From a virus: a stretch of 23,334 bases of DNA. Of this stretch, positions 1 through 16,695 are shown one piece after another (position 1 is the first letter of the stretch; every line of letters starts with the position of its first letter). A program made the translations under genes and the position numbers. Where the stretch lies: UHGV virus genome UHGV-0335559, one strand, 5' to 3'. Under the pieces are notes generated by a model, which saw nothing but the letters and a program-made list of their open reading frames with translations, had not been told where the DNA came from and ran no database searches.

Positions 1-300
1 CCCCGCGATCATGACGAAGTTGCCGCCGCCGATCTTCACGTCGCCGACCTCAACGACGGTGTCCTCCGGATGGAACTTGCGGTTGCAGCACTTGAAGGGC
101 TCGCTCACGCGCTTGACGCTGTCGACGATGCCGAGACTCGCGATCAGGTCCATGTCCACGTTGGTCGTGTCGCCGACGAGACCGAGCACGGTCTGATATT
201 CGCCCTCGGAAATGTGGATGACCAGCCCCTGAGCCTTGAGCCAGTCGATGAGCTGCGTGCGCTTTGCCGCTTCCACGCCATGTTTGAGTACGACGATCAT
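1..300 (-). CDS. Partial CDS (5' end only; continues beyond window start). First 100 residues resemble class I-beta DAHP/KDO8P synthase with an N-terminal ferredoxin-like regulatory domain
   Basis: Manual translation of the reverse complement of 1-300 gives MIVVLKHGVEAAKRTQLIDWLKAQGLVIHISEGEYQTVLGLVGDTTNVDMDLIASLGIVDSVKRVSEPFKCCNRKFHPEDTVVEVGDVKIGGGNFVMIAG. The FHPEDTV..GDVKIG.G.F.IAG block matches my recollection of the Thermotoga-type DAHPS N-terminus. ATG at 298-300 has a GGAGG Shine-Dalgarno 8 nt upstream. Not in the supplied ORF track because it is truncated by the window edge. Confidence 0.5.
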   Translation of the reverse strand, partial: MIVVLKHGVEAAKRTQLIDWLKAQGLVIHISEGEYQTVLGLVGDTTNVDMDLIASLGIVDSVKRVSEPFKCCNRKFHPEDTVVEVGDVKIGGGNFVMIAG

Positions 301-340
301 GATGATTACCTCCGATACAATGTTGCAGATTTCTTGGATA

Positions 341-380
341 TCAAAAAGAAAATGCGGCACAGGCTCAACCTGTGCCGCAT
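341..380 (-). terminator. Rho-independent terminator downstream of the tail fibre assembly gene
   Basis: Perfect 12-bp inverted repeat ATGCGGCACAGG (352-363) / CCTGTGCCGCAT (369-380) with a 5-nt loop. On the minus-strand RNA it is followed by a U-rich run (plus strand 341-351 AAAAAGAAAA). Confidence 0.6.
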
Positions 381-399
381 GAAAGCACCGCGCCGGACG

Positions 400-843
400 T
401 CATCTGGCCTGAACTGCCGGAGGCGTAGGCCATTCAATATCTGGCGCACCGGAAGTATCAACCAGTTCCAGTGCGTCCAGATAATCCAGCCATAAATTAT
501 ATTGTTCCAGCTCGTCACCTTTCAGACGACCAATAGCAGCTTTGCCAGGCCACTGATGGGTATTGATGTAGGTATTGACTTCTGAAACCAAAGATATTTT
601 TTTCATTTCAGCCGTCAACACCTCATCCTCTTTTGAAGGTGGTGGGGAATTAATCCATACTGGCCGTCCTGAACTGTCAGCGCCAATTTCTTTCCCTTCT
701 GGATGCAGACCAAGAAATTGCTCATATGTTTCTCTGGTAATTTCAATAACATCATCAGGAAGCGTTCCCGCATCCTCATATTCTGGAAACAATTCTTGCA
801 GATAAAAACTTTTACTCCCGGGTGAAAAGAATACTGAGTTCAT
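400..843 (-). CDS. G: Tail fibre assembly chaperone (P2 gpG-like)
   Basis: 147-aa ORF directly downstream of the tail fibre gene. C-terminal segment ...YNLWLDYLDALELVDTSGAPDIEWPTPP is typical of tail fibre assembly proteins. Position matches P2 gene order. Confidence 0.75.
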   Translation of the reverse strand: MNSVFFSPGSKSFYLQELFPEYEDAGTLPDDVIEITRETYEQFLGLHPEGKEIGADSSGRPVWINSPPPSKEDEVLTAEMKKISLVSEVNTYINTHQWPGKAAIGRLKGDELEQYNLWLDYLDALELVDTSGAPDIEWPTPPAVQAR

Positions 844-845
844 TC

Positions 846-2126
846 TTACCGTCCAATGATTAACGCTGAGACGCTGGTATCTGAAGGAAAGGCTGCATTC
901 AGTGGTTTGTCGACTTTGAATACAATCGTATTATTCCCCCTGACAGCGGCAAAAGAACAAACCGCCGTCGCGTATGAACCTGTAATATTACTGGATACAC
1001 CACCATAAGCTGTTGTTGAGACCAGAGGGATAACGCCCAGTACCTTATTAGGAAATACAAAGGGCAATGTGGCTGTGGCAATATAAGACTTATTAGAACC
1101 TGTAATGGCATAAGCATTATCAGTCATTCCATTCATCGCCACCGGGCCGCTTATACTTACAGTAACCATCTGAATGATTAGCCCGTCAGGTTGACGAATC
1201 ACAAAATTTCCATTGCCACCAGTAACCGTCCAGAAAGACATATCAGGGATTTGGTTTTCCCCGTTGCCCACATTCCGTTTTGCTGCTTCTCCCAAACCAA
1301 GGTATGCGAGAAGACCAGCTACATCCTTTCCACTCAAATGAGTCAGCGTCTCATCCAGTGGCTGCTTACCTGACAGCGCATTGTTAATGGTGGTGCTGAA
1401 TTTCGGGTCATTGTTAATGGCCGCGGCAATTTCTTTCAGTGTGTCCAGCGTGGCAGGCGCACCATTAATCAGAGCGGTAATAGCAGCCTGAACAAACGCA
1501 GTGGTCGCAATCCGCGTGGTGTTATTTCCTGCGGCAGGCGTCGGCGCTTTTGGTTCTCCGGTAAATGTCGGATTATGTTTCTGTGCATACTGGGTATGAG
1601 GATCCTGTGCGGCAATGTGGTTTCTCATCTGGTCATCCACATACAGCCTTAATTCCAGGACTTCATCATCCACGTATTTACGGGTCGCCAGTACCACCGA
1701 CGGGTCGATTTTCAGCGTGATGGCTTCGGTATTCGAGACAACCAGAATCATGCGGATAGTCTGGGTACGACCACTGCCTTCCTGCAACTGCGGTTTGTAC
1801 GTTTCCGGGCAGTTCGCCACCGCAATGAGTACGCCTTCATCATCATAAAGCCCAATCTCACGGATCCAGAATCCGCCCTCGTTCTCAGGGATGATTTGCT
1901 CCGCAATAATCTGGCTCTGGTTGTTCGGGTCAACACTCAGAAGATTCAGCGGCGCGATGCGTTTCTGGTTAATCAGTTTTGTCTGTGCCGGGTCTGGTGT
2001 CGGCAAGACACCATTCGCATCACCAACGGCCATTTGCGTCAGATTCAGCTTACTGCCGAGCATCGTCGCGTTAGCCAGCCGTGCAGCGCCCTGATTAGTC
2101 AGAATGGCGTAGTATTTCACTGTCAT
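846..2126 (-). CDS. H: Tail fibre protein (P2 gpH-like N-terminal domain, divergent C-terminal region)
   Basis: 426-aa ORF. N-terminus MTVKYYAILTNQGAARLANA...MAVGDANGVLP...GGFWIREIGLYDDEGVLIAVAN matches the conserved gpH N-terminal baseplate-attachment domain as I recall it. Overlaps the upstream I gene by 4 nt. Confidence 0.85.
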   Translation of the reverse strand: MTVKYYAILTNQGAARLANATMLGSKLNLTQMAVGDANGVLPTPDPAQTKLINQKRIAPLNLLSVDPNNQSQIIAEQIIPENEGGFWIREIGLYDDEGVLIAVANCPETYKPQLQEGSGRTQTIRMILVVSNTEAITLKIDPSVVLATRKYVDDEVLELRLYVDDQMRNHIAAQDPHTQYAQKHNPTFTGEPKAPTPAAGNNTTRIATTAFVQAAITALINGAPATLDTLKEIAAAINNDPKFSTTINNALSGKQPLDETLTHLSGKDVAGLLAYLGLGEAAKRNVGNGENQIPDMSFWTVTGGNGNFVIRQPDGLIIQMVTVSISGPVAMNGMTDNAYAITGSNKSYIATATLPFVFPNKVLGVIPLVSTTAYGGVSSNITGSYATAVCSFAAVRGNNTIVFKVDKPLNAAFPSDTSVSALIIGR

Positions 2127-2734
2127 GCGTTTACTCTCAGGTTATCAATTAAATGAATGGCCGAGGCCGGGAAATAATCCCCTCCGACAATAATGGCCTC
2201 CGGGGTGTAGGGATAAACCGTCAGGGCGTCGCCGTGATAGCATCCCGCACCGGCAAAAATGTTGCCGGTTGTACTTAAACTGATAGCCAGTCCCGTCAGA
2301 TGGCGGCTTGCCGGTTTTGCATCAGCAACGAGGCGCTCCAGCTCCTGATACATTTCCTCGGTAATACCCTGCTCAAGCACGCCAACAACGATACGGAACG
2401 TCCCCGGCTCCTCGTTGAGTTGCCACCACTCCCTCACCTCAATCAGATAGCCGAGCGGCTCCACCACACGGCGAATCGCACCAATAGTGCCCTTATGGCA
2501 GTGAATGAAATACGCATCGCGGATAACAGCGCGTTTTGTCGCTTCCGGCCACTTATCATCCCAGCGGTCAACCGAAAATGACCACGCCAGCCACGGCAGC
2601 AGATTTGCCGGACAGGTATCCGGGTTCCACAGCTCACGAATACTGACCGGCGTTTTTTCAATTTCCGCACAGGCTTTTGCGGCGGCGACCTCAAGCGGTG
2701 ATGAGCCGGTCGGCAGCAGTCGCGAATCACTCAT
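2123..2734 (-). CDS. I: Baseplate/tail protein gpI
   Basis: 203-aa ORF between J and H in P2 order. Overlaps J by 8 nt (translational coupling). Confidence 0.85.
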   Translation of the reverse strand: MSDSRLLPTGSSPLEVAAAKACAEIEKTPVSIRELWNPDTCPANLLPWLAWSFSVDRWDDKWPEATKRAVIRDAYFIHCHKGTIGAIRRVVEPLGYLIEVREWWQLNEEPGTFRIVVGVLEQGITEEMYQELERLVADAKPASRHLTGLAISLSTTGNIFAGAGCYHGDALTVYPYTPEAIIVGGDYFPASAIHLIDNLRVNA

Positions 2735-3635
2735 CCGAGCCTCCGGTCACGACACGGTATTCAGTACAGAAAGACGCCTGCGTACTGTTGAGCACGATGT
2801 CGGCCAGTGGTGCAGCCAGTTCGACACGCTGCACACCTTCCACATGCAAAGCGGCATAAATGGCAGACAGACGGATGTCACGCCCCAGCCGGTGCTGTGC
2901 CGTGATATACGCTTCCAGTTTTTTCACGGCGGCAGCGCGGATGGGTTCGCTTTCGGGACCAGGGTAAAGGTAAAGCGTGGCGTTTATCTGGTATTCAACA
3001 ATGGCGGCAGACTGCACAGTCACGCGGTCGGCCACCGGCCTGACGTCCTCGCCATTAAGGGCGTTACGCACCGCCGCCAGCAGGTCTTCGGATGCCACAC
3101 CGTTATTTTCACGTGACAGCACGGAGATGGTGACGCAGGCCGGAGACGGACTGGTGACAGAGATATCCGCGACACGCCCGTCGGCACTGCGACCATGATA
3201 CTGATAGGCTCCCACCGACCCGGCGACGCTTAAGCCTTCAAACGCCTGCTGAATACGCAGACGATAATCCGTGTCAGATTCCATCACTGCCGGTGTCGGC
3301 GGGATGGTCGAATCATCTGCCGGGGTGATAATCAGGCGCGTGGTGTTGTAATTGGCACCAATCACATCAAGGTCATTACCGGCGGCACAAGCCAGCATCA
3401 CCGCCCGTGCGGCCTCATTCACACGCTGACGCCAGATAAGCTCACGATAAGCATTTTCCTCCAGCAGTTTGACGAGAGGCTCCGATTCCAGCGTCAGGGT
3501 ACGGGCGACCGCCTCCTGCTGGTCTTCCGGGTAAAGGGAAATCAGTGTCGCCTTGCGTTCGGCAAGAATGGTTTCAAAGTCCAGCTCCTCGACCACATCC
3601 GGTGCGGGTAGCTGGTTCAGGTCGATAATCGGCAT
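2727..3635 (-). CDS. J: Baseplate assembly protein gpJ
   Basis: 302-aa ORF, same length as P2 gpJ as I recall it; position between W and I. Confidence 0.9.
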   Translation of the reverse strand: MPIIDLNQLPAPDVVEELDFETILAERKATLISLYPEDQQEAVARTLTLESEPLVKLLEENAYRELIWRQRVNEAARAVMLACAAGNDLDVIGANYNTTRLIITPADDSTIPPTPAVMESDTDYRLRIQQAFEGLSVAGSVGAYQYHGRSADGRVADISVTSPSPACVTISVLSRENNGVASEDLLAAVRNALNGEDVRPVADRVTVQSAAIVEYQINATLYLYPGPESEPIRAAAVKKLEAYITAQHRLGRDIRLSAIYAALHVEGVQRVELAAPLADIVLNSTQASFCTEYRVVTGGSDE

Positions 3636-3639
3636 GGTT

Positions 3640-3987
3640 TCAACTCATAGGGATGGTTAACGAAAGTGGCTGGCCGGTGTCGTTGTGCTGACCGGTTAAC
3701 GTGACCGTCATTCGCCCGTCAAAACTGCGCGCCGTGGTGACGGATGACAGGGTGACGCGGGGTTCCCATTTCAGCACGGCCATGTAACAGGCGACCTTAA
3801 TCTGCAACTCAAGCGCCGGGGTCTGCGGCTGGTCAATCATTGACGCCAGCAACGAGCCGTAATCACGACGCATCACCCGTGAGCCGACCGGTGTGCGCAG
3901 GATATCGCCGATACTCTGGCTGATATGCTCAAGGTCAGTGACAGTCAGGCCATCACTGCGATTCATTCCGAGATAACGCGCTGTCAT
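3640..3987 (-). CDS. W: Baseplate protein gpW (GPW/gp25 family)
   Basis: 115-aa ORF, length and position match P2 gpW. Confidence 0.9.
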   Translation of the reverse strand: MTARYLGMNRSDGLTVTDLEHISQSIGDILRTPVGSRVMRRDYGSLLASMIDQPQTPALELQIKVACYMAVLKWEPRVTLSSVTTARSFDGRMTVTLTGQHNDTGQPLSLTIPMS

Positions 3988-4619
3988 AGAGGACTCCCGG
4001 TTGTGCCGCCGCTGTCGCCGGGGTGTTTATGGGTATGCAGTACCTTACCGTTTGATGAGAGTTCACCGCCGGTGTGTTCAATGTTGCCGCGCATCGTCCC
4101 GCCCTTCTGCACTTCCAGCGTGCCGGTAATCAGCCTGTTGGTGCAGACCACCTCCGGTGTGTCCAGGGTGATGCGGGTTGATGCTTTCACCATGACCATC
4201 GGCACCGTGGCAGTAACAGAATCAGAAGCCGTCACGCTGGCCGTTTTAATTCCGCTTACCGTGAGTGCACTGGTTTCGGGTTCATACTCAATCACCGCCC
4301 CGTCAGGGAAACGGATATGCAGGGCATCCGCCGACGCAGACGGCGCGTGGTTATCGCCGGAATAAATCCCCGGCAGAACGAATGCCGTGTCGAGTTCACC
4401 GCCCACGGCCAGAATCAGCACCTGTTCCCCCACGGAAGGTGCCCACCATGTGCGCGAACGACCGGCGCGATGGGTCAGCCACTGAAGCCAGTCGGTGCAC
4501 ATGCCGCCGGTCTGCACACGGCAGCGACCGGCGTTAAGGTCGGTTTCGACGATAATGCCGGTGCGGATCATGTTACGCAGTGCGCGCGCGAGTTCCTGAA
4601 TATTTGCGAGAGTGTTCAT
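3984..4619 (-). CDS. V: Baseplate spike/assembly protein gpV
   Basis: 211-aa ORF, length and position match P2 gpV; overlaps W by 4 nt. Confidence 0.9.
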   Translation of the reverse strand: MNTLANIQELARALRNMIRTGIIVETDLNAGRCRVQTGGMCTDWLQWLTHRAGRSRTWWAPSVGEQVLILAVGGELDTAFVLPGIYSGDNHAPSASADALHIRFPDGAVIEYEPETSALTVSGIKTASVTASDSVTATVPMVMVKASTRITLDTPEVVCTNRLITGTLEVQKGGTMRGNIEHTGGELSSNGKVLHTHKHPGDSGGTTGSPL

Positions 4620-4685
4620 AACGGGAAGGATGCCGCCGGGTCATACCGGCGGCAATGTGACGATGAGGTGTCAGGAATGGCACAA

Positions 4686-5138
4686 CTAACGGTCGAGGTG
4701 AGCCAGAATAATCTCTTCAATCATCTGCACATCCTCACCGGTAAAGCCGAGCAGAGGACGCGCCGGATAATCAATTTTCTTACCGTCTTTCCGGTTTTCT
4801 TCCGACAGACCGAACTGATGCACGCTGGCGATTTTCGGTGACTTCCCGCCGTAAAACTCCATTGATGCCTGTTCCGGGCTGGCGCGGATATGCAAAAAAC
4901 GACTGGTGATAAGTTTCGCAAACATTTTTCGCTTAACACGACCAGTCTTTTTTCTGGCGCTCTGCTGCTGGCGTGGCGCGTAGGGTGTACCGTCCGGGGC
5001 TTTCTGAGCCATCACCCGACGCTGCTGACTCTGCCGCAGACGTTTCGCCAGTTCGGCACTCAGTCGCCGACGCCCTGACGGTGACAGCGACTCAATCAGT
5101 CCGGTCAGCCGGTCTTCAAAACGCTTAAACTCATTCAT
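4686..5138 (-). CDS. S: Tail completion / virion morphogenesis protein gpS
   Basis: 150-aa ORF downstream of R; length and order match P2. Confidence 0.85.
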   Translation of the reverse strand: MNEFKRFEDRLTGLIESLSPSGRRRLSAELAKRLRQSQQRRVMAQKAPDGTPYAPRQQQSARKKTGRVKRKMFAKLITSRFLHIRASPEQASMEFYGGKSPKIASVHQFGLSEENRKDGKKIDYPARPLLGFTGEDVQMIEEIILAHLDR

Positions 5139-5598
5139 CCCACTTGCTCACCAGTTCGCCATTGATATAAAGCTTCATCGGGCGGGTGACCGGCTCCGGC
5201 GGCGTGGGTTCCGGGATATTCTTCACATGCAGCGCGCCGTCCACCTCACTGACCAGCGTGCGTTCGGTCAGCATCAGGCTGATGCTGATATCAAAGCTGC
5301 TGTCATTGTTGATGTCTGCATAAAACGTGAAGCCCTTTTTCTGGCCTTCGTCGGTGGTCATGATGTCGGGCTGATTTTCCCGCAGCCACGCCAGCACCGG
5401 CACGATGAGCAGGTCAAAATCACCGGTAAAGTCGGTCACAATCACATTGAGCGTGTAACGCTTTTCGAATGACAGCGACGTCGCCAGTGTGGAGGCAATA
5501 CTCCCGTTATCCACGAATATCCGCAGCATCTCTGGACTGGTTTTCAGCACCGTGACGGCATCAGTCAGCGCCCTGCGCAGGCTGTCGGGTTTGAGCAT
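5131..5598 (-). CDS. R: Tail completion protein gpR
   Basis: 155-aa ORF; length and order match P2 gpR; overlaps S by 8 nt. Confidence 0.85.
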   Translation of the reverse strand: MLKPDSLRRALTDAVTVLKTSPEMLRIFVDNGSIASTLATSLSFEKRYTLNVIVTDFTGDFDLLIVPVLAWLRENQPDIMTTDEGQKKGFTFYADINNDSSFDISISLMLTERTLVSEVDGALHVKNIPEPTPPEPVTRPMKLYINGELVSKWDE

Positions 5599-5851
5599 CG
5601 TTTTCGTCCTGACAGTGTTTAATCATTTTTACCTGGCTGGCACAGCGTGCCAGCGCGTTCTCAAGCTGCCGGATATCGGCACTTAAATCGCCGTTCGTCT
5701 CCGGGTCACTGCCCGGCATCGGGCAAAGACTCACTTTCGGGCAGGCGTTGGCGACAATCACTGGCGTCAGTGCAGGCCGGACGCTGGTGCAACCGGCGCA
5801 CAGCATCAGGCAGGTCAGCGCCGTACCAGCGGCGAAAATCTTCGTTTTCAT
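5561..5851 (-). CDS. lysC: Outer-membrane spanin lipoprotein (LysC/Rz1-like), embedded out of frame in lysB and running into R
   Basis: Internal Met of the 109-aa ORF gives MKTKIFAAGTALTCLMLCAGC..., a signal peptide with lipobox cysteine, followed by a Pro-rich mature part. 96 aa, as I recall for P2 LysC. Start chosen at the internal Met, not the ORF-track start. Confidence 0.7.
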   Translation of the reverse strand: MKTKIFAAGTALTCLMLCAGCTSVRPALTPVIVANACPKVSLCPMPGSDPETNGDLSADIRQLENALARCASQVKMIKHCQDENDAQTRQPAQGAD

Positions 5852-6131
5852 TAAGTAACCTCGTGATGGTTTTCTCGCGCTGTGCTTCACGCTTCGCGGC
5901 GTTCTCCAGTTCCTGACGCAGTGCTACCTGCGCCAGCTCGTTTTTGTCTGCCCTGGTGAGGGCAACATGAAGCTGATTTTTCAGCATGGTGATGGTCGTC
6001 TGCTGCCCGTTGGCGACGTTGCTCGCCCTGTCCAGTGAGGTGCGCAGGCTGGCGTTTTCATGCTTCGCCAGAAACAGACCGGCCACCGCCAGTGATAACA
6101 ACACAACCAGCACAATCATCAGCTTTGACAT
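5706..6131 (-). CDS. lysB: Inner-membrane spanin (LysB/Rz-like)
   Basis: 141-aa ORF with N-terminal TM segment (MSKLMIVLVVLLSLAVAGLFLA) and a coiled-coil-like, charged remainder. Position after lysA. Confidence 0.8.
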   Translation of the reverse strand: MSKLMIVLVVLLSLAVAGLFLAKHENASLRTSLDRASNVANGQQTTITMLKNQLHVALTRADKNELAQVALRQELENAAKREAQREKTITRLLNENEDFRRWYGADLPDAVRRLHQRPACTDASDCRQRLPESESLPDAGQ

Positions 6132-6544
6132 GGTTCCCGCCCCTCAAAACGCTGACGACAGGCCGTGCGTATCAGCCGGAAGAACACCGACGCCACGAGG
6201 TAAATCAGCGCGGTAAAAATCCACCCGGCAGCGACCAGCGAGATAAACGTCGCCACCATCACCACCAGAGCCGCCGCCCGTCTGCGCCACGGCACCGGCT
6301 GCAAAAACAGCGACGCGACAATCTTCACGGCCAGCGATTCCGGCGGCAGCTCCCGCCCGTAGCGTTCCAGCACATACTCAGTGGCATACACGCCGACACC
6401 ACCGGCAACCACACAGATAACCGTCGCCAGAATCGCCCAGGCGGCGACAAAATTGACGGCCACGCTCTGCGGGTAAATCAGGGACAGTGCCAGCATCAGC
6501 GCCAGCGACACGTTCAGCATCAGTGAAAGGGATAATTTCTTCAT
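6119..6544 (-). CDS. lysA: LysA membrane protein (lysis timing/holin-associated)
   Basis: 141-aa ORF with several hydrophobic segments; sits between K and lysB as in P2. Confidence 0.75.
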   Translation of the reverse strand: MKKLSLSLMLNVSLALMLALSLIYPQSVAVNFVAAWAILATVICVVAGGVGVYATEYVLERYGRELPPESLAVKIVASLFLQPVPWRRRAAALVVMVATFISLVAAGWIFTALIYLVASVFFRLIRTACRQRFEGREPCQS

Positions 6545-6558
6545 GGTGTTTACTCCGT

Positions 6559-7056
6559 TTAAGCCGGTACGCCGCCAGCGGTACGCCAGACGGTGACCAG
6601 TTTTTCCAGTGAATGCTCACGCTGACCGTAACCGGCACCCGGCAGGGACGCCCAGATATTGCGACAGCGTGAAATGGCGCGCTCAATGCGTCCCGCCCGG
6701 ATGTCATCCAGTGCACCGCGTTCGCGGATCAACTGAATGGCGAGTCTGTCCTGTGACAACGGGCTGAAATCAGGCAGGGCAAGCTGTTTACGGTAGTGCG
6801 GCCAGAACAGGTAAAGCTGCTGATAGCGACCGGAGGCCGTGGATTTTTCACCGCGACGGTTAAACACCTTCGCCGGTCGGCCATGTGCGAACGGGTGGTC
6901 ACTGTAGTCGGTGAAAATTTCCGGCTTTCCGTCCAGTCCGGTGACTATCACGTCATAGCCCCGGTTTTTCGTCAGCGGATGATTCGCCGTCCCTTCGGAC
7001 ACGGCCAGCATGTCGAGAAAGGCGGCGATATTCTGATGCGTGTTAATTACCGGCAT
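6559..7056 (-). CDS. K: Endolysin (lysozyme-like, P2 gpK)
   Basis: 165-aa ORF MPVINTHQNIAAFLDMLAVSEGT...; phage lysozyme-like N-terminus. Its start overlaps the stop of the holin gene. Confidence 0.9.
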   Translation of the reverse strand: MPVINTHQNIAAFLDMLAVSEGTANHPLTKNRGYDVIVTGLDGKPEIFTDYSDHPFAHGRPAKVFNRRGEKSTASGRYQQLYLFWPHYRKQLALPDFSPLSQDRLAIQLIRERGALDDIRAGRIERAISRCRNIWASLPGAGYGQREHSLEKLVTVWRTAGGVPA

Positions 7057-7337
7057 TACGGTTTCCCCCTGCCCTTAAAACGGCGCTGAATGGCAATCTC
7101 AATCACCTGATAGCCGGCGATACCCAGCATGGAGCCGATGCCGCACACCGCAGGCAGTGACAGGTCAGGAAACTGCACCAGAACAACACCGGCAACCATC
7201 GAGACAAAACCACCGAGCAACATGCGCCCGATAAACAGACGCGGGGTGATGGGTTCACCACCGGCAAGCACCTTGCCGACAACAATCAGCACCCCAATCA
7301 TGAAAAGCGACAGGACGCTTTTTTCTTCTGCTGTCAT
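7056..7337 (-). CDS. Y: Holin (P2 gpY)
   Basis: 93-aa ORF with hydrophobic TM segments and a charged C-terminus; immediately upstream of the endolysin gene. Confidence 0.85.
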   Translation of the reverse strand: MTAEEKSVLSLFMIGVLIVVGKVLAGGEPITPRLFIGRMLLGGFVSMVAGVVLVQFPDLSLPAVCGIGSMLGIAGYQVIEIAIQRRFKGRGKP

Positions 7338-7340
7338 GCG

Positions 7341-7544
7341 TTACTCCCACAGATTGACAGTTTCAGCCACGGGCGCGGTCTGAACGTCGGGCAGTTCGAC
7401 GGCGGTGCCGTGCGGCAGCACCGCACCCAGTTCAGCCAGTCCCGGATTTGCGGCGAGCACGGCCTCGACCACGCCCTCAGTGCGCCCGTAATACCGGACA
7501 CAGATGGCGTCGAGCGTGTCGCCCTGTAGCGCAAAGGTCTTCAT
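7341..7544 (-). CDS. X: Tail protein gpX (LysM-like)
   Basis: Internal start MKTFALQGDTLDAICVRYYGRTEGVV... gives 67 aa. The ATG overlaps the L stop by 1 nt (ATGA). The longer ORF-track start at 7613 was not used. Confidence 0.85.
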   Translation of the reverse strand: MKTFALQGDTLDAICVRYYGRTEGVVEAVLAANPGLAELGAVLPHGTAVELPDVQTAPVAETVNLWE

Positions 7545-8053
7545 CAGATTTGACTCACAATGCAGCGCGGCTTGTCCTGGATTCGCGCCACTGCCCAGCG
7601 CATATCCCGCCACAGCTCATCAATGGTGCTGTCAATGCTGTCGGCCTTCTTGTCGCCTTTCGCACTGGCATCCACGCCGCGATAACGCTCATAAAGCGAT
7701 GCGGTCGCCATCGCACACACGGCGCGCTCGTAGTAAAAAACTTTGATGCTTTCACCGTCGATGTCGTCCGCCGGGACGTCCGCCAGACGCGTAAAACCGG
7801 CGGCAATTTTCTGTTCGCGGTACTCGTACAGCTCCGCATTCGTCTCCGCCATGCCTGACTTGATGGCCTCACGCAGACGGGCGGGGGCGACGGTCTGCTC
7901 AAGGCGCATACGTTCCCGGACGCGCTTCGGGTCGATATCGGGAAAAAAGAACGTGTTTTTAATCACCGGCTCGTCGCCTGCCGGTTGCGGGATGACCACC
8001 GTACCCTCACCGGACACGGGAGCCTCCTTTCGCGGAATAATCAGCGTCATCAT
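7544..8053 (-). CDS. L: Head completion protein gpL
   Basis: Internal start MMTLIIPRKEAPVSGEGT... gives 169 aa, matching P2 gpL as I recall it. The longer ORF-track start at 8113 was not used. Confidence 0.85.
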   Translation of the reverse strand: MMTLIIPRKEAPVSGEGTVVIPQPAGDEPVIKNTFFFPDIDPKRVRERMRLEQTVAPARLREAIKSGMAETNAELYEYREQKIAAGFTRLADVPADDIDGESIKVFYYERAVCAMATASLYERYRGVDASAKGDKKADSIDSTIDELWRDMRWAVARIQDKPRCIVSQI

Positions 8054-8152
8054 GACTACCTCTGAAAAGTCGGGCGGTGGACGCCGGTGCAGTGTCAGGT
8101 GATTCACCGTCACTGACCGGCGTGCCGCCCTGGCGCGGGGCGCATTCGGTTG

Positions 8153-8896
8153 TTAACTGGCTTTCTTTTTCGGGCGTCCACGTTTTGCCGGTGTCACGCT
8201 CCGGGTCTTACGCGGGGCGCGGGGGGACGCTTTGGGCTGCGGCTCCGGCTTCGGTTTCATCTCCCGCTCCAGTCGTTCAATCTCTTTTTTGACGCCTGCC
8301 TGACAGTCGAGCTGTGTCGCACGTTGCAGGTGCGCCAGCGCACCGGCGGCATCACCACCGTCACGCAGAAACAGACCGGTGATTTTGTGCAGCTTTGCGC
8401 GCACTTCATCAGGCATGTCAGCCGTGGCAGTCAGTTCAAGGGTGTCCGTCAGCAGGCGGGTATCCACAGACTCACCGGCAGCGTGGGCGCGCATGGCCGC
8501 AAGTGCCACCTCCTCGGTGAACATGTACGGCGGGGTACGGCGGTGTTTACCCGGCATGGTCAGACCGTATTTCAGGGCATAACGGGCAATCTCCAGCGCA
8601 CCGGCAATATCGCCGGTATCCAGACGCCACAGCATGACCGTCATCAGAATGTCATCCTGTGCACCTTTGCCCTGCTCCAGCACGCCGTTCACCCACGGCA
8701 ACCAGAACGGCAGCAGTTCGCGTTTTTTCGCGGCTTTCAGCTCTTTTGAATAAATCGCTTTCAGTGTGCGCTGGTCTGCGGCCAGCTTGACCAGCATCTG
8801 CTCATAGACAGTTGCATGTCGCAGCGGGGCGGCTTCCCGCTGCGCGGTCATCGCTGCCGAGACCCGCATCATGTGGCGCTGTGCGGGACTCGTCAT
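8153..8896 (-). CDS. M: Terminase endonuclease (small) subunit gpM
   Basis: 247-aa ORF; sequence (MTSPAQRHMMRVSAAMTAQREA...) is very close to P2 gpM as I recall it, with a basic C-terminal tail. Confidence 0.9.
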   Translation of the reverse strand: MTSPAQRHMMRVSAAMTAQREAAPLRHATVYEQMLVKLAADQRTLKAIYSKELKAAKKRELLPFWLPWVNGVLEQGKGAQDDILMTVMLWRLDTGDIAGALEIARYALKYGLTMPGKHRRTPPYMFTEEVALAAMRAHAAGESVDTRLLTDTLELTATADMPDEVRAKLHKITGLFLRDGGDAAGALAHLQRATQLDCQAGVKKEIERLEREMKPKPEPQPKASPRAPRKTRSVTPAKRGRPKKKAS

Positions 8897-8899
8897 CGG

Positions 8900-9973
8900 T
8901 TACGCTCCCGGCTCTGCGGTCGCTTTAGCCGGTGTGGAGAAATCACCGACCTTAATTTTTTCCACCAGACAACCGGCGGCGTAGTCTTCCACCACGTAAT
9001 CAATGTTCATTGACTCGTAGTTCTCCACGCGGTCGAGTTTCGGGTTTTCCTCAATCACGCGGCGATGGCTGTCATCCATGTAGTAGATGGACAGGTTTTC
9101 CAGCTTCGTGATGAGCATCGCATCTGCCGGGAAGTACGGGACGCGCACTGCCGGCAGGTTACCGATGCGTTTCTGGCTGATGATGACGTCAGCGGCCAGC
9201 ATTTCGCTGTTGTCCTGCTCCCTGTTGACGATGGGGAAATACTTGTCCGCCAGTAGCTGACGCCCCACAATCACCACAAGGTCAGGGTCTTCCTGATACC
9301 ACGGCTCAATCAGGTTGTTGGTCGCATCCATCACCAGTGCATCGAGGCTGGCATAATCACCGCCCTTACCCACGCGGATGACCTCAGAGGTCGTGTGACC
9401 TTCCTCGTCAGTAACCTTGCTCATCACGCGCGCCGGGGCTTCATTGCGGTATTTCTGCAGCCAGCCGACCGCCACATCCTGCAGCATCTGGTTACTGCTG
9501 CGGTCAGAGGTTTCGGCACGCCTCACGCCGTTAAAACCGGCCATGATTAAATCAAGGGACTGGCGTTTGATAATGGCGTTACGGACACGGAGCTGGAAAT
9601 CCTGATAACGCGCCCACAGGTCCAGCGTTTTGTAGCGGATATAAAAATCGAAGTTAATCTGGTCGCATTCGTACTTGTTTGACGCCAGCTTCGAGAAGTC
9701 CTTCGGCTGACGCTCGGTGCCACCGGCGGTGTCGGTGGTGCTGGCGATGGAGCCGGTGACACCGATGCCAATTTTTTCCCCTTTCATTTCGCTGACCGGC
9801 ACAATATTGATGCGGGTCAGAAAGTCAGAGGACTCCTGCATGGTGTTCATCAGGGTCTGGGTGACCGACGGTTCAACGGTGAATTTTTTCGACACATCAC
9901 CGGCGTCGATGCCGTTCAGTTCGGCAACACGGGACAGGTAGGCATTAAATTTAAAGCGGGTTTCCTGGCGCAT
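8900..9973 (-). CDS. N: Major capsid protein gpN
   Basis: 357-aa ORF, length and position match P2 gpN. Confidence 0.9.
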   Translation of the reverse strand: MRQETRFKFNAYLSRVAELNGIDAGDVSKKFTVEPSVTQTLMNTMQESSDFLTRINIVPVSEMKGEKIGIGVTGSIASTTDTAGGTERQPKDFSKLASNKYECDQINFDFYIRYKTLDLWARYQDFQLRVRNAIIKRQSLDLIMAGFNGVRRAETSDRSSNQMLQDVAVGWLQKYRNEAPARVMSKVTDEEGHTTSEVIRVGKGGDYASLDALVMDATNNLIEPWYQEDPDLVVIVGRQLLADKYFPIVNREQDNSEMLAADVIISQKRIGNLPAVRVPYFPADAMLITKLENLSIYYMDDSHRRVIEENPKLDRVENYESMNIDYVVEDYAAGCLVEKIKVGDFSTPAKATAEPGA

Positions 9974-10031
9974 AGTTTTTCCTGAAATTAAGGGTTAATC
10001 GTGAAGGTTTTCCCGGACTGGCTGACGCCGG

Positions 10032-10886
10032 TCAGCAGTTCGTCATCAGGGCGTCACCGCCACCACCGGTGGCCTTGCTGCGGCGCTGCTGGGTCAGACT
10101 TTCGGTGTGGTCGAGACTGTTTTTCAGGCGGGTGAATGCCTGGCTGGTTTCATCCGCCCTGTCAGTCACATCCTGCTTAAGTGCGGAAAAAGCGGTTTCC
10201 ATCTCAGCGAGGCGCTGCTCAGTGGCGCTCAGTTTTTCCTGCACATGTTCAGCAACAGCGGTCACCGCTTCATGCACGTCATTCAGACGGGCGTCATCGC
10301 TGGCCTGTTTGCGGCCAAAAATGGACTTCACCTTTTCGGTCAGGGCGGTGAACACGGTTTCAGGCAGGTCTTCAAATTCCAGCTCAACGGGCGTTGCCAC
10401 TGAAATCAGGTTTTCAGGGCTTAATTTGAAGCGGTTCAGGGGGTTGTGTTTTGCCGTGCGGCAGAATTCCAGGTATTCCGTGCCGAGGCTTGCCGGGTCA
10501 TCGGTGACGGCCAGACCCACCAGATAACATTTGCCGGTGTTGGCAAAGTTCGGCTGAATTTCCATTGAGGTGTAGACCTTCTGCGCGGCCTTGTTCATCG
10601 CGATAAGGTCATCGGTCGGGGTGATTTTCGCAAACAGCGCCCATTTGCCTTTCAGCGCCGAATCATCGTCAATCTTTTCGGCCTTCAGTTCGACCACATC
10701 GCCATAACGCTTAAAAATACCGTCAGGCAGGATGCCGCGCAGATGTTCCAGGTTAATGCGGCAACCATAGACTCGCGGGTCAAAGGTTTCGGCCATTTCC
10801 TGAATATCCTGCGCACTGATGACACGCCCGTCACAGGTGTCACCCTCAACGCCGATACGAAAGAATTTTGATGCTTTTTTTGCCAT
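10032..10886 (-). CDS. O: Capsid scaffolding protein gpO
   Basis: Start set at internal MAKKASKFFRIGVEGDTCDGRVISAQDIQEM..., the P2 gpO N-terminus as I recall it, giving 284 aa. The ORF-track start at 10952 is an upstream in-frame extension. Confidence 0.9.
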   Translation of the reverse strand: MAKKASKFFRIGVEGDTCDGRVISAQDIQEMAETFDPRVYGCRINLEHLRGILPDGIFKRYGDVVELKAEKIDDDSALKGKWALFAKITPTDDLIAMNKAAQKVYTSMEIQPNFANTGKCYLVGLAVTDDPASLGTEYLEFCRTAKHNPLNRFKLSPENLISVATPVELEFEDLPETVFTALTEKVKSIFGRKQASDDARLNDVHEAVTAVAEHVQEKLSATEQRLAEMETAFSALKQDVTDRADETSQAFTRLKNSLDHTESLTQQRRSKATGGGGDALMTNC

Positions 10887-11059
10887 TGTCAGGAGTCCTG
10901 AATAGTGATTAGAGGAGTCACATGTCGGCATCAGTTTCCCGACGATGCGCATCCTCCGCCATCAGTCCCGGATGGCTTATCACTGACACAACAGCACCTT
11001 AGCGAATCGCGGGACGCGACTCAGTAGCCTTGCCGTGTATTCATCACGGCGAGGTATTC
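10887..11059. promoter_or_regulatory. Divergent late-promoter region between O and P
   Basis: 173-bp gap between divergently transcribed O and P, as in P2 where the Ogr-activated late promoters lie. I could not find a clean TGT-N12-ACA dyad by eye, so exact elements are unassigned. Confidence 0.35.
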
Positions 11060-12829
11060 ATGACCATCACCACAGACACCACTCTTTTACACGACCCGCG
11101 TCGTCAGGCGGCGCTGCTGTACTGGCAGGGGTTTTCCGTGCCGCAGATTGCCGCCATGTTGCAGATGAAACGCCCGACGGTGCAGAGCTGGAAACAGCGC
11201 GACGGCTGGGACAGCGTTGCCCCCATCAGCCGTGTCGAAATGAGTCTGGAAGCGCGGCTGACCCAGCTCATCATCAAACCGCAGAAAACCGGCGGTGACT
11301 TCAAGGAAATTGACCTGCTCGGACGCCAGATTGAACGACTGGCACGGGTCAACCGTTACAGTCAGACCGGCAACGAGGCAGACCTTAATCCGAACGTCGC
11401 TAACCGCAACAAAGGCGGGCGTCGCAAACCGAAAAAGAATTTTTTCAGTGACGAGGCCATCGAAAAGCTGGAGCAGATTTTCTTTGAGCAGTCTTTCGAA
11501 TATCAGTTGCACTGGTATCGCGCCGGGCTTGAGCACCGCATCCGCGATATCCTGAAATCCCGCCAGATTGGCGCAACGTTTTATTTTTCCCGCGAGGCGC
11601 TGCTGCGCGCCCTGAAAACCGGTCATAACCAGATTTTTCTGTCGGCCAGTAAAACGCAGGCGTATGTGTTCCGCGAATACATCATCGCCTTTGCCCGGCT
11701 GGTTGACGTTGACCTGACCGGTGACCCGATTGTCCTGGGCAATAACGGCGCAAAACTGATTTTTCTCGGCACCAACTCCAACACCGCACAGAGCCATAAC
11801 GGTGACCTGTACGTCGACGAGATTTTCTGGATCCCGAATTTTCAGGTACTGCGTAAGGTGGCATCAGGTATGGCCTCACAGAGTCACCTGCGCTCGACCT
11901 ATTTCTCCACCCCGTCCACGCTGGCGCACGACGCCTATCCGTTCTGGTCGGGTGAACTGTTCAACCGGGGACGCGCCAGCGCCGCCGAACGCGTGGAAAT
12001 CGACGTCAGTCATAACGCCCTTGCCGGTGGGCTTCTCTGTGCGGACGGCCAGTGGCGGCAGATTGTCACCATTGAGGACGCCCTGAAAGGTGGCTGCACG
12101 CTGTTCGACATTGAGCAGCTTAAACGCGAAAACAGCGCCGACGATTTTAAAAACCTGTTCATGTGTGAATTTGTTGACGACAAGGCGTCGGTATTCCCGT
12201 TCGAGGAGCTGCAGCGCTGCATGGTCGATGTGATGGAGGAATGGGAGGACTTTGCCCCGTTCGCCGACCATCCGTTCGGCTCTCGTCCTGTCTGGATTGG
12301 CTACGACCCGTCACACACCGGCGACAGTGCCGGGTGCGTCGTGCTCGCGCCGCCGGTGGTCTCTGGTGGCAAGTTCCGCATGCTGGAGCGCCACCAGTGG
12401 AAGGGCATGGATTTTGCAGCACAGGCAGAGGGCATCCGCAAGCTGACCGAGAAATACAACGTCGAATACATCGGCATTGACGCAACCGGCCTCGGTCTCG
12501 GCGTGTTCCAGCTGGTGCGCTCATTTTACCCGGCGGCACGCGGCATCCGTTACACACCTGAAATGAAAACCGCAATGGTACTCAAGGCGAAAGACACCAT
12601 TCGCCGTGGCTGTCTGGAGTACGACGCCGGAGCAACCGACGTCACGCAGTCGTTTATGTCCATCCGCAAAACCATGACCAGCAGCGGGCGCTGCGCCACC
12701 TATGAGGCCAGCCGCACCGAGGAAGCCAGCCACGCCGATATCGCATGGGCGACCATGCACGCCCTGTTAAACGAACCGCTTTCTGCCGGTAGCGGCATGC
12801 AGCCTAAATCTATTCTGGAGTTCAACTAA
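11060..12829 (+). CDS. P: Terminase ATPase (large) subunit gpP
   Basis: Start set at MTITTDTTLLHDPRRQAALLYWQGF... with GAGG 7 nt upstream, giving 589 aa. The ORF-track start at 11030 lacks a ribosome binding site. Confidence 0.9.
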   Translation: MTITTDTTLLHDPRRQAALLYWQGFSVPQIAAMLQMKRPTVQSWKQRDGWDSVAPISRVEMSLEARLTQLIIKPQKTGGDFKEIDLLGRQIERLARVNRYSQTGNEADLNPNVANRNKGGRRKPKKNFFSDEAIEKLEQIFFEQSFEYQLHWYRAGLEHRIRDILKSRQIGATFYFSREALLRALKTGHNQIFLSASKTQAYVFREYIIAFARLVDVDLTGDPIVLGNNGAKLIFLGTNSNTAQSHNGDLYVDEIFWIPNFQVLRKVASGMASQSHLRSTYFSTPSTLAHDAYPFWSGELFNRGRASAAERVEIDVSHNALAGGLLCADGQWRQIVTIEDALKGGCTLFDIEQLKRENSADDFKNLFMCEFVDDKASVFPFEELQRCMVDVMEEWEDFAPFADHPFGSRPVWIGYDPSHTGDSAGCVVLAPPVVSGGKFRMLERHQWKGMDFAAQAEGIRKLTEKYNVEYIGIDATGLGLGVFQLVRSFYPAARGIRYTPEMKTAMVLKAKDTIRRGCLEYDAGATDVTQSFMSIRKTMTSSGRCATYEASRTEEASHADIAWATMHALLNEPLSAGSGMQPKSILEFN

Positions 12830-12830
12830 A

Positions 12831-13877
12831 ATGGGTAAACAAAAATCCCGTAAAGCCAACGCACAAAAGGCCAGCAAACCACAACAACTGACCGCCAGCG
12901 CACCGCCAAAAACGACAGCGTTCACCTTCGGCGAGCCGGTGCCGGTACTCGATAAGCGCGACATTCTGGATTACGTCGAGTGCATCAGTAACGGCAAATG
13001 GTACGAGCCGCCGGTCAGCTTCTCAGGGCTGGCAAAGAGCCTGCGCTCTGCCGTGCATCACAGCTCGCCAATTTATGTTAAGCGTAACGTGCTCGCGAGC
13101 ACCTACATTCCGCACCCGTTGTTATCCCGTCAGGATTTCAGCCGCTTTGCGCTCGATTATCTGGTGTTCGGTAACGCCTTTCTTGAGCAGCGCCACAGCG
13201 TCACCGGCCAGTTAATCAAACTGCTGGCCTCGCCAGCCAAATACACCCGACGCGGAGTCGACGATTCGATTTTCTGGTTTGTGGAAAACTTCACCCAGCC
13301 GCACGAGTTCGCGCCTGATACCGTGTTTCACCTGCTGGAGCCCGACATTAATCAGGAGATTTACGGTCTGCCGGAATATCTCAGCGCGCTTAATTCCGCT
13401 TGGCTGAATGAATCCGCGACGCTGTTCCGCCGCAAGTATTATCAGAACGGCGCGCACGCAGGCTACATCATGTATGTGACTGACCCGGCGCAGAGCGCGA
13501 CCGACGTCGAATCGCTGCGCGAGGCGATGCGCAACTCAAAAGGGCTCGGCAACTTTAAGAACCTGTTTTTCTACGCTCCCGGCGGAAAACCGGACGGCAT
13601 CAAAATCGTGCCACTGAGCGAGGTCGCCACAAAGGATGACTTTTTCAACATCAAGAAGGCCAGTGCCGCCGATCTGATGGACGCGCACCGCGTACCGTTC
13701 CAGCTCATGGGCGGCAAGCCCGAGAATATCGGTTCACTCGGTGATGTTGAGAAGGTGGCAAAGGTATTTGTGCGCAACGAGCTGTCGCCGCTACAGGACA
13801 GGTTCAGGGAGGTAAATGACTGGCTCGGCATGGAGGTCATCAGATTCAAAGAGTACACCCTCGACAACCCAGAATAA
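12831..13877 (+). CDS. Q: Portal (capsid vertex) protein gpQ
   Basis: 348-aa ORF starting 2 nt after the P stop; position and size match P2 gpQ. Confidence 0.9.
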   Translation: MGKQKSRKANAQKASKPQQLTASAPPKTTAFTFGEPVPVLDKRDILDYVECISNGKWYEPPVSFSGLAKSLRSAVHHSSPIYVKRNVLASTYIPHPLLSRQDFSRFALDYLVFGNAFLEQRHSVTGQLIKLLASPAKYTRRGVDDSIFWFVENFTQPHEFAPDTVFHLLEPDINQEIYGLPEYLSALNSAWLNESATLFRRKYYQNGAHAGYIMYVTDPAQSATDVESLREAMRNSKGLGNFKNLFFYAPGGKPDGIKIVPLSEVATKDDFFNIKKASAADLMDAHRVPFQLMGGKPENIGSLGDVEKVAKVFVRNELSPLQDRFREVNDWLGMEVIRFKEYTLDNPE

Positions 13878-13954: not shown

Positions 13955-14959
13955 ATGGGCGCGGAGATTAATATTTTGGAAACTGATTTTAAAATAACCC
14001 TCGAAGGTTTCGCTACTGAGCAAGAAGCAAATAATATCGGTAATTTCACACTAGAAGCTATCCGAGCTTTAACAAAAAATCTCAATCTTGATATCTCCAA
14101 ATTAAAATGCGTGATTGTTTCCTATAACTTCAGTGAAGCTCTTCAAAAGGTAACATCCTCTTACCAACACAAATCCCCTAGTTCATTTACCAATAGCAAA
14201 CAGGGCGCAGCCGTCGGGCAGTTAGTAACAAAAATTGGCAATGATGGGCTATGTGAAGAATATACCCTTGTGCTATCGATTGATTTTTTTGTTGAGCTTT
14301 TCAATGATGGTAGCTTCTTAAAACTGAAAGAAGAAGGATACCTCGCAGTCATCCATCGCATTCACCATGAATTAGTGCACGTACATGAAAAAAACTTACT
14401 AACATGCTTAGCCCAAAACTTTACAGTCAACGAGTATGGTAGCGCGCTTCTTATCTCAGCCACGCGTGCATGGTCTGAATATCTCGCTAATTACATGTCT
14501 TCGGGGTCTGCCCCTCAAGAAACTATCGATTTATTTTTAGAGAATCTTGACACTGTTGTAAATGAAGTATCTGACGAGATTGAAAAACTCATCTGGGGTT
14601 ATAAGTACGGTAATATTTCTCTGAATGACATGTATCTTGAAGTAAAAAAACGTATCAGGCTAATCATCAACTCTTATGCTTATGCGATGGGTTATGTCCA
14701 TTCTCTAAACATCAATATTAAAGAATACGATCCAAAGCTATCCCTTACACTATCCAACTCAAAGATAAGATATCAATTATCAGAATTAGGCATTGCTTTT
14801 CAGAATCTTTATGGGAAGTTTAATGACCAGCACATTACAGGTTTTGGTGATTTTCGGGAGATAACAATAATCATTGATGAAATATTCAAGCAGTTTGGGC
14901 TTGTTTTAGAGTGTCCCGATTGGTCTGGCGACGGTGAACTCTACATACATGTAAATTAG
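13955..14959 (+). CDS. Hypothetical cargo protein, 334 aa, HExxH motif (IHRIHHELVHVHEKN); no recognisable family
   Basis: Long uninterrupted ORF in an island of about one-third G+C (flanking phage genes are well above 50%). Sits between the portal gene and cos, where P2 as I recall it has only about 100 bp. No Walker A, no TM segment, no HTH that I can see. Confidence 0.6.
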   Translation: MGAEINILETDFKITLEGFATEQEANNIGNFTLEAIRALTKNLNLDISKLKCVIVSYNFSEALQKVTSSYQHKSPSSFTNSKQGAAVGQLVTKIGNDGLCEEYTLVLSIDFFVELFNDGSFLKLKEEGYLAVIHRIHHELVHVHEKNLLTCLAQNFTVNEYGSALLISATRAWSEYLANYMSSGSAPQETIDLFLENLDTVVNEVSDEIEKLIWGYKYGNISLNDMYLEVKKRIRLIINSYAYAMGYVHSLNINIKEYDPKLSLTLSNSKIRYQLSELGIAFQNLYGKFNDQHITGFGDFREITIIIDEIFKQFGLVLECPDWSGDGELYIHVN

Positions 14960-15178
14960 TTTAATCATAGTAGAAACATAATTAGCAGTTTGAATCCTGC
15001 CACTCCTGTAAAGCCGCTGCTCCTGGTGGCTTTTCCATGCACACCACCATCACGCATCAGATGCGTCTCACGCGCACGAACACACTCGACCACCAACGAA
15101 CCAGCAGCGACCACGACAGCGCCATCACGACGCGCTCAGAGGATAATTTTTATTATTACGCATCACTGCTGGCGCGCA

Positions 15179-15197
15179 ATGCTTTCCCCGCCACGCC
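15179..15197 (-). other. cos-like site (19-nt cohesive-end sequence of P2/186-type phages)
   Basis: Minus strand reads GGCGTGGCGGGGAAAGCAT, matching the 19-nt cohesive end as I recall it for 186 (P2: GGCGAGGCGGGGAAAGCAC). Its orientation relative to Q is the same as at the P2 left end. Confidence 0.55.
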
Positions 15198-15353
15198 TGC
15201 CCGCTTTATGGGGCGGTTTTAATGCAGTTGCATGACAACTCTGGATCCGCGCTAGCTCTGGCGGCGCACGGACAGAACGGGCAAGACTGACGCATGCAAA
15301 ACCATGCACCTAATGCATGCACGACTAAAAAACGGGAAATTCGCGGAAAAATG

Positions 15354-15390
15354 GCATAAAAAAACCGGCATTCAGGGTGCCGGTTTTAGT
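15354..15390. terminator. Bidirectional rho-independent terminator
   Basis: A-tract (15356-15364), 7-bp stem ACCGGCA (15364-15370) / TGCCGGT (15378-15384) with a 7-nt loop, then TTTT. U-runs follow the hairpin on both strands; it would end the minus-strand tum-like operon before cos. Confidence 0.55.
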
Positions 15391-15523
15391 CTGGTTTTGT
15401 CGCGATTAATGGCCGCGCAATGCGCCAATAACACTGTTGAGGCACATGCTGGCAACAATCATCAGAAAAATCGTCGTCCACGGATTTTCATAAACGATAG
15501 ATAACATATTTATATAGTTCCTC

Positions 15524-15808
15524 TTATTTGCGCATTCTGATGTGATTTAACAGGTGTTTGATAACGACTGATAGCTCATCTTTACCGGCCTGCTCGACCA
15601 TTTTTGCGGTGTAGCTTTCCACCTCGCGAGAGCTCAGGTCGTTATTTAAAGCCATTAAAGTCAGATTCTTTGCCCAATCGGCAAACGGGTCATTTTTCGA
15701 TGAAAGGGGATTTTGCATGTACAAAAACCTCGAATTATTTAACCAGCAGACGGTTGAAGTATTTGCGACGCTATGACCGGCTAACGCCTCGCGTAGCTCG
15801 TTGTTCAA
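15524..15808 (-). CDS. Hypothetical small protein (last gene of the SOS operon); start uncertain
   Basis: 94-aa ORF whose first codons lie inside repeat A. An internal Met at 15718 (MQNPLSSKND...) with GAGG upstream is the more likely start (64 aa). No recognisable family. Confidence 0.35.
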   Translation of the reverse strand: MNNELREALAGHSVANTSTVCWLNNSRFLYMQNPLSSKNDPFADWAKNLTLMALNNDLSSREVESYTAKMVEQAGKDELSVVIKHLLNHIRMRK

Positions 15809-15849
15809 CCCCGCCAGACCTGAAAGCGAGTTTCAGCTCCGGCGGCGTT
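15785..15849. repeat. 65-bp direct repeat, copy A (contains hairpin CTGAAA-GCGAG-TTTCAG)
   Basis: Aligns with 16190-16254 at roughly 85% identity, including identical blocks TTGTTCAACCCCGCCAG and CCGGCGGCGTT. Begins 2 nt after the stop of the 69-aa ORF on the minus strand. Confidence 0.75.
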
Positions 15850-15851
15850 AT

Positions 15852-16061
15852 CTATGGTCGACGTGGTGGCGGTGAGTAATGTGTCGGCTTGCTGATGCTA
15901 TCCAGCTTGCCGTAATTATCCCTGACTATTTCGGCACACCCGACCAGCTCGGCGGGTGTCAAATTCTCATTGACCATTATCTGCTGCAGACGATGAACGA
16001 TGGCCATCAGTTTGATGCTTTTAGTTTTGTGCTGCGGAATTTTGCCCGGTAGTCGATGCAT
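15852..16061 (-). CDS. Hypothetical 69-aa protein flanked by the two direct repeats
   Basis: ORF with GAGGG Shine-Dalgarno 7 nt upstream of the ATG at 16061. No recognisable family. Confidence 0.4.
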   Translation of the reverse strand: MHRLPGKIPQHKTKSIKLMAIVHRLQQIMVNENLTPAELVGCAEIVRDNYGKLDSISKPTHYSPPPRRP

Positions 16062-16254: not shown

Positions 16255-16256
16255 TG

Positions 16257-16490: not shown

Positions 16491-16493
16491 AAT

Positions 16494-16676: not shown

Positions 16677-16695
16677 GAAATCCCTCCCACAGGGT

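Follow-up and report, generated by a model that had tools for sequence, protein, structure and literature searches.

The 23,334-nucleotide stretch of DNA analysed here (the window) combines sequence from two unrelated gut bacteria of different phyla. Positions 1-384, which hold the start of a DAHP synthase (DAHPS) gene, read as part of the chromosome of a human-gut Oscillospiraceae species (Bacillota) that has not been cultured, and the remainder comes from an E. coli P2/186-like prophage of ordinary make-up that has an invertible tail-fibre cassette. Read literally, the window would present a temperate coliphage with a shikimate-pathway enzyme inserted at a P2 hotspot, a striking example of an auxiliary metabolic gene. 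As a biological arrangement, the placement of DAHPS after the tail fibre assembly gene tfa is most likely spurious, and we infer, with a probability of about 0.9, that the join is an artefactual chimera and not a phage-borne metabolic gene. Since the window is a composite of two genomes, the DAHPS gene is not phage cargo, and the "missing" tail genes merely lie outside this piece of sequence.

The DAHPS frame occupies positions 1-300 on the minus strand. It comprises exactly 100 codons (MIVVLKHGVEAAKRTQ...VKIGGGNFVMIAG), starts with an ATG at 300-298 and exits the window at the left end, where 100 residues of an enzyme of about 334 residues are visible. A ribosome binding site, GGAGGT, is located at 313-308 (minus strand), 7 nt 5′ of the ATG, and the earlier note was thus right in placing a gene start with a good ribosome binding site at 300. 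The full model of the DAHP synthase ferredoxin-like domain (PF18152, model positions 1-67 of 67) is covered by this frame with an E-value of 4.8e-21 and a score of 74.8 bits against a cut-off of 27, and residues 1-100 align to residues 1-100 of the Thermotoga maritima-type DAHP synthases 1RZM/3PG9, 1VR6 and 4GRS (E about 6e-22). The visible part is therefore annotated, from the PF18152 match, the PDB matches and the identity to its closest orthologue, as the start of a class I-beta DAHPS that consists of the ferredoxin-like regulatory domain and the beginning of the catalytic barrel.

Only about 33 residues of the barrel lie inside the window, and the catalytic domain (PF00793) was read from the orthologue at locus L001 (uncultured Clostridiales UMGS596). 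This protein of 334 amino acids, identical to the fragment over the visible 100, contains both PF18152 and PF00793, the latter with an E-value of 2e-74, and it exceeds the cut-offs of two NCBIfam DAHPS models, NF006421 (485.9 bits; cut-off 335) and TIGR01361 (393.2 bits; cut-off 267.75). For the orthologue an identity as KDO8P synthase was rejected, as it scores 105-107 bits with the corresponding models against cut-offs of 242-314. The earlier identification of the fragment as the start of a class I-beta DAHPS with a ferredoxin-like domain was right, with matches far outside what chance would give. As far as its 100 residues show, the fragment belongs to the Thermotoga-type class I-beta DAHPS family.

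The chromosomal background of this gene was sought by scanning the 100-residue fragment against one genome per bacterial species, which returned 351 relatives, 80 of whose loci (L001-L080) were kept. These loci come from gut and rumen metagenome-assembled genomes and from isolates; their labels are nearly all Clostridiales, Oscillospiraceae or Ruminococcaceae, and none of the 80 carries an Enterobacteriaceae label. The comparison with sequence collections that had been suggested for the fragment gave a DAHPS match, the best relative (L001) being 100% identical at the protein level over the 100 residues. At the DNA level the identity of positions 1-384 is 98.7% with L001 and 98.2% with L002. 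A 40-mer at 345-384 is present in 69 metagenome contigs, and where these have descriptive names they are human-gut assemblies; each of the 69 aligns with the window up to position 384, and the best are 98.9-99.7% identical.

At L001 the DAHPS gene is followed by genes for prephenate dehydrogenase, 3-dehydroquinate synthase and EPSP synthase, in the order DAHPS-tyrA-aroB-aroA, and upstream of DAHPS the first kilobase or more of L001 is collinear with L002-L005. Because it heads a native operon with tyrA, aroB and aroA, the DAHPS gene is a core biosynthetic gene, the head of an aromatic amino acid operon in its native Firmicute, and not an accessory gene. No phage-like content was detected when positions 385-23334 and eleven phage proteins were compared with the 80 Firmicute loci, and no P2-like proteins were found within 10 kb of DAHPS in the orthologous loci. 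Positions 1-383, searched with 11-base words against 5,426 complete E. coli genomes, gave no match.

The phage side of the window has an equally well-defined parent. When the first 1,500 bases were searched against the same 5,426 E. coli genomes, matches started only at base 384. Positions 384-1500 are 99.3% identical to E. coli PCP06021, positions 384-12126 form a gapless 97.8% match to an E. coli prophage contig (L084), and positions 16186-23334 match a further locus (L082) at 99.3%; overall, 384-23334 is wholly covered by E. coli P2/186-like prophages. The first phage feature is a 3′ stub of tfa′ on the plus strand (384-428), which retains the last 14 codons and the stop. Its translation, STAPDVIWPELPEA followed by the stop, is identical to the C-terminus of the 200-amino-acid tfa′ product in PCP06021. 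The gene is cut at codon 187 of 200, and the window contains none of its first 186 codons. On the minus strand follow tfa, a P2 G-like tail fibre assembly gene of 147 amino acids (400-843; PF02413, E = 2.7e-27), and a P2 H-like tail fibre gene of 426 amino acids (846-2126; PF12571, E = 1e-62), both as they had been described from the sequence at first reading.

The surroundings of these genes elsewhere are consistent. The exact Tfa protein occurs in 929 blocks of a public gene collection, with a convergent tfa′ as the next gene in all ten of the places shown, and for this protein and the exact tail fibre protein alike all places shown are intact E. coli prophages that continue with tfa′, an invertase and the sheath gene. 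In the nearest E. coli prophages a convergent tfa′ of 200 codons comes after tfa and overlaps its 3′ end; beyond this second gene are an alternative tail-fibre C-terminus and a resolvase-family invertase, and beyond the invertase are the sheath, tube, E, tape measure, U, D and ogr genes. The same tfa/tfa′ cassette was also found in Mu-like and cryptic E. coli prophages.

A 27-nt crossover site for inversion of the Cin/Gin/Pin type (CTTCTCCCAAACCAAGGTATGCGAGAA) lies inside the tail fibre gene at 1286-1312. It was placed by gapless alignment to L084, where a 27-nt inverted repeat (10815-10841 and 12795-12821) flanks an invertible cassette beside a resolvase-family gene. The window holds one of the two inversion sites; its partner (12795-12821 in L084) and the invertase are missing. 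In intact relatives the partner site, the alternative fibre C-terminus, tfa′ and the resolvase-family invertase are all present. As the intact relatives possess the partner site and the invertase, this phage lineage switches tail fibres by inversion, instead of carrying the P2 Z/fun locus after G.

The rest of the prophage (2123-23334) was annotated from the L084 and L082 matches, E. coli annotations and Pfam. It consists of baseplate, tail-completion, lysis and head genes on the minus strand, the terminase and portal genes on the plus strand, a cargo region (13955-16100), and then DinI, replication gene A, genes of the CII/Fil/Apl side, the CI repressor, DUF2511 and the integrase, with Pfam hits for DinI, CI, DUF2511 and integrase. 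The integrase gene (22285-23334) ends with a stop codon that coincides with the end of the window (23332-23334). The window stops just short of the attachment site, and both prophage-host junctions are out of view; in E. coli TW10598 the matching prophage adjoins yfiB/dgcN.

Some features of this region can be recorded in their own right. After the portal gene, at the position of the P2 old/tin cargo hotspot, there is an AT-rich block (34-41% G+C) that encodes a 334-amino-acid protein on the plus strand (13955-14959; PHROG 11743, function unknown) and small ORFs up to about 16100. The protein has no Pfam match and no PADLOC match, the block recurs at about 99.9% identity in 26 of the 5,426 E. 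coli genomes, and the gene is regarded as an uncharacterised candidate for superinfection exclusion or defence. The V/S intergenic gap (4619-4686) is a second cargo hotspot of the phage lineage; it is free of any insert in the window, and in close relatives (L083, 6283-7362; L082, 13036-13872) it holds a RelA/SpoT-domain or pentapeptide-repeat gene. The longest ORF of the CI-type repressor (20878-21912, plus strand) has 344 codons with a GTG start and overlaps a divergent gene (20582-20953), and the homologue annotated in E. coli TW10598 has 281 amino acids with two PF07022 stretches and PF16452. Because of this overlap and the shorter homologue, the true start of CI is probably an internal ATG.

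The point at which the two parents meet was resolved by a three-way alignment of the window, L001 and an E. coli locus (L081). The window reads ...CCTGTGCCGCATGAAA up to 384 and GCACCGCGCCGGACG... from 385. L001 matches through 384 and then goes on with CAAACCCGAT..., and PCP06021 matches from 384/385, its preceding bases being ...GATACCA. The junction is blunt, the overlap of the two parents amounting to a single nucleotide, the A at 384. All Firmicute alignments (80 loci and 69 metagenome contigs) end at or before about 384, and all E. coli alignments begin at 384. The native leader (CAAACCCGAT...) follows position 384 in 69 of the 69 metagenome contigs and E. coli sequence in none of them, and the closest five of the 80 Firmicute loci likewise run on natively past the break. 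A 30-mer that spans the junction is absent from IMG/VR and from the metagenome contig collection, and the junction was not found in any of the 5,426 E. coli genomes.

The break falls inside a functional unit on either side, tfa′ on the phage side and a transcription attenuator on the Firmicute side. No recombination site or mobile-element end was found at 384. A repeat-mediated graph misjoin was considered and set aside, there being no inverted or direct repeat at 384 and no shared k-mer, and site-specific inversion was rejected as the cause, since the crossover site at 1286-1312 is 900 bp from the junction. The suggestion that the prophage is truncated or rearranged here is half right: the phage does stop at 384, inside tfa′, but what follows is DNA of another phylum, which is neither E. 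coli chromosome nor rearranged phage.

An artefact of this kind would arise during human-gut metagenome sequencing or assembly, through a read or template that is itself chimeric, through misassembly, or because two contigs were written one after the other. Two pieces, the Oscillospiraceae DNA of 1-384 and the E. coli prophage of 385-23334, would thereby have been placed end to end illegitimately. Chimeric contigs are far commoner than cross-phylum joins of this kind. What counts against an artefact is that a blunt overlap of 1 nt is unlike a de Bruijn-graph misassembly at a shared repeat; a join like this one has to come from a chimeric template or read, from scaffolding or concatenation, or from a molecule that really exists. 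Because there is no shared k-mer at the breakpoint, and an overlap of 1 nt only, a chimeric read or concatenation is favoured over a simple graph misjoin at a repeat.

The junction could also represent a real molecule formed by illegitimate recombination, either a piece of E. coli prophage in an Oscillospiraceae chromosome or Oscillospiraceae DNA in an E. coli prophage, in which case a very recent transfer between Pseudomonadota and Bacillota, before any amelioration, would have to be assumed. The human gut is the habitat of both organisms, and blunt joins with 0-2 nt of microhomology are typical both of illegitimate (end-joining-like) recombination and of artefacts. However, each flank still matches its native lineage at 98-99% identity and shows no amelioration, the junction occurs in no other public sequence searched, Oscillospiraceae-like DAHPS DNA is found in no E. 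coli genome and P2-like genes in none of the 80 Firmicute loci. In addition, the join costs the phage a working tfa′ and its tail module, and the aro operon ends up behind a terminator that has lost its antiterminator. With this evidence on the two sides, a real molecule is considered improbable.

Less probable still is a prophage remnant in an enterobacterial chromosome, in which a deletion of the tail genes would have fused the prophage to a host DAHPS gene. The phage is indeed truncated here, and the earlier note had foreseen host chromosome on the left. Yet E. coli has no DNA similar to 1-383, aroF, the DAHPS gene annotated in E. coli close to this attachment site, is unrelated, and an Enterobacteriaceae label is missing from the kept loci; such a remnant is therefore regarded as very improbable.

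The reading of DAHPS as an auxiliary metabolic gene that the phage really carries, at the P2 Z/fun hotspot after tfa, draws on the orientation of the gene, which runs in the direction of the late genes, on its own ribosome binding site, and on the P2 region after gene G being a known accessory-gene hotspot. Among phage-derived sequences the gene has no near kin: IMG/VR encodes no close relative of the fragment, and the phage collection yields five short, unannotated records with at most 60% amino-acid identity. The plasmid records that were matched are large replicons of non-enteric bacteria or misfiled chromosomes, with at most 51% identity, and a literature search on phage-borne DAHP synthase found nothing directly relevant. 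The right flank of DAHPS is Firmicute leader and its left flank lies outside the window. Phage cargo is hardly credible given that at 384 the sequence switches to 99%-identical Firmicute chromosome, including the 84 nt of non-coding leader to the right of the gene, that the phage is severed within a gene (codon 187 of 200 of tfa′) and not at a module boundary, and that in related prophages this position is taken up by the invertible cassette and the invertase, followed by the sheath gene. The earlier proposal of a metabolic gene at the P2 accessory hotspot is contradicted by the near-identity of the gene and the 84 nt upstream of it to an Oscillospiraceae chromosomal aro operon. The elevated G+C that had been noted for the gene is real with respect to its neighbourhood (61% in 1-300 against 43-49% in 301-1500) but does not set it apart from the phage as a whole, most of which (2400-13800) has 52-63%.

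The window preserves, on its Firmicute side, part of a regulatory element. Positions 301-384 (minus strand) are a remnant of the leader of the Firmicute aro operon, recognized from a terminator scan, L001 and the 69 contigs, and include, besides the ribosome binding site, a hairpin (380-352) and a U-run (351-342). The hairpin is a perfect 12-bp helix (13 pairs in the terminator scan, 8 of them G-C) that is followed by TTTCTTTTTG, and together with its T-run it is the sole terminator-like site within positions 1-1000. A strong terminator had been claimed between tfa and DAHPS, and the hairpin with its T-run at 352-380 bears this out; as a terminator of tfa it does not qualify, since it lies on the non-phage side of 384. 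The hairpin is predicted to be the terminator of a ribosome-mediated Tyr/Phe leader-peptide attenuator. The window retains regions 3 and 4 of the attenuator only, the leader ORF and region 2 (the antiterminator strand) being missing and replaced by E. coli DNA. The anatomy of the element was hence read from orthologous Firmicute loci, the window showing just the terminator half.

The complete element spans positions 9806-9955 of L001 and occupies the equivalent position in most of L001-L080. A short leader ORF rich in Tyr and Phe was recognized in 56 of the 74 loci tested, typically with 15-20 codons of which 4-10 specify Phe, Tyr or Trp; examples are MNMNRSFYFAYAYYFTMLQ in L001 and MKSIFVFAYYYYFTMDS in L023, each followed by a stop, with Tyr/Phe runs such as ...FAYYYYFT.... 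The last codons of the leader ORF form the 5′ arm of the region 1:2 hairpin. Region 2 contains the conserved sequence GGnUrAUUUGUGrUGCA and is followed by the G+C-rich hairpin with a U-run (3:4). RNAalifold recovers both the 1:2 hairpin and the terminator, and region 2 pairs with the 5′ arm and loop of the terminator at -12 to -21 kcal/mol in all 58 of 58 leaders. Compensatory changes between region 2 and the terminator loop were observed (GGAUAA-UUAUCC, GGGUAA-UUACgCC and GGCUAA-UUAGaCC). By analogy with the trp and phe attenuators, ribosome stalling at the Tyr/Phe codons would free region 2 to form the antiterminator.

Other classes of leader were considered for this element. An Rfam scan of one locus (L001, 9500-10100; E ≤ 1) gave no family match; a riboswitch was rejected, the only hits being at chance level (RsaF, L20 leader and PtaRNA1; E 0.12-0.58) and far below gathering scores, and a T-box was dropped in favour of the leader-peptide attenuator visible in the orthologous sequences. 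The attenuator, a by-product of the analysis, is the only new biology encountered here; DAHPS itself is nothing unusual, a core biosynthetic gene in a Firmicute that is common in the gut. The window also carries a general warning, in that wherever "metabolic cargo" is encountered at the edge of a phage contig, the positions at which nucleotide similarity to each parent lineage ends should be checked.

The components of the window can be compared with several known systems. The DAHPS fragment shares with the Thermotoga maritima-type enzymes (1RZM, 3PG9, 1VR6; NF006421) the same ferredoxin-like domain and an end-to-end alignment of the visible part, and the ferredoxin-like (ACT-like) regulatory domain is N-terminal in these enzymes and likewise in the fragment; the window differs in that it holds 100 of about 334 residues, with the rest of the barrel outside the view. 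Enzyme activity and feedback inhibition by Tyr/Phe are predicted from homology to 1RZM/3PG9.

The phage portion resembles the E. coli P2/186-like prophages with a Cin/Gin/Pin-type cassette (PCP06021 and TW10598), to which it is 97.8-99.3% identical in DNA where aligned. The gene order is shared as well: tfa, tail fibre, I, J, W, V, S, R, lysis, L, M, N, O, P, Q, cargo, DinI, A, ... CI, DUF2511 and int. In contrast to these prophages, the window is without the rest of tfa′, the alternative fibre C-terminus, the invertase, FI, FII, E, E′, T, U, D and ogr, and foreign DNA stands in place of all these. The join itself has the properties of chimeric metagenome contigs, namely near-identical flanks from different phyla in one habitat, a break within genes or regulatory units, and a junction that is unreproduced in other data sets; it differs from chimeric contigs that stem from a graph misjoin by having no shared k-mer at the breakpoint.

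Ribosome-mediated leader-peptide attenuators of the E. coli pheL-pheA and trpL type are well documented in Proteobacteria; in Firmicutes this role usually falls to T-boxes. His-leader attenuators have been reported for the his operons of some Firmicutes (PMC9413887); apart from that paper, a literature search on aromatic leader-peptide attenuation in Clostridia found nothing directly relevant. The Oscillospiraceae aro leader is probably a newly seen instance of a known regulator type. It has the same parts as the pheL-pheA and trpL attenuators, that is a leader ORF (of about 17 codons), a 1:2 hairpin, a 2:3 antiterminator and a 3:4 terminator, and it differs from these and from the His-leader attenuators in the operon that it would control, DAHPS-tyrA-aroB-aroA.
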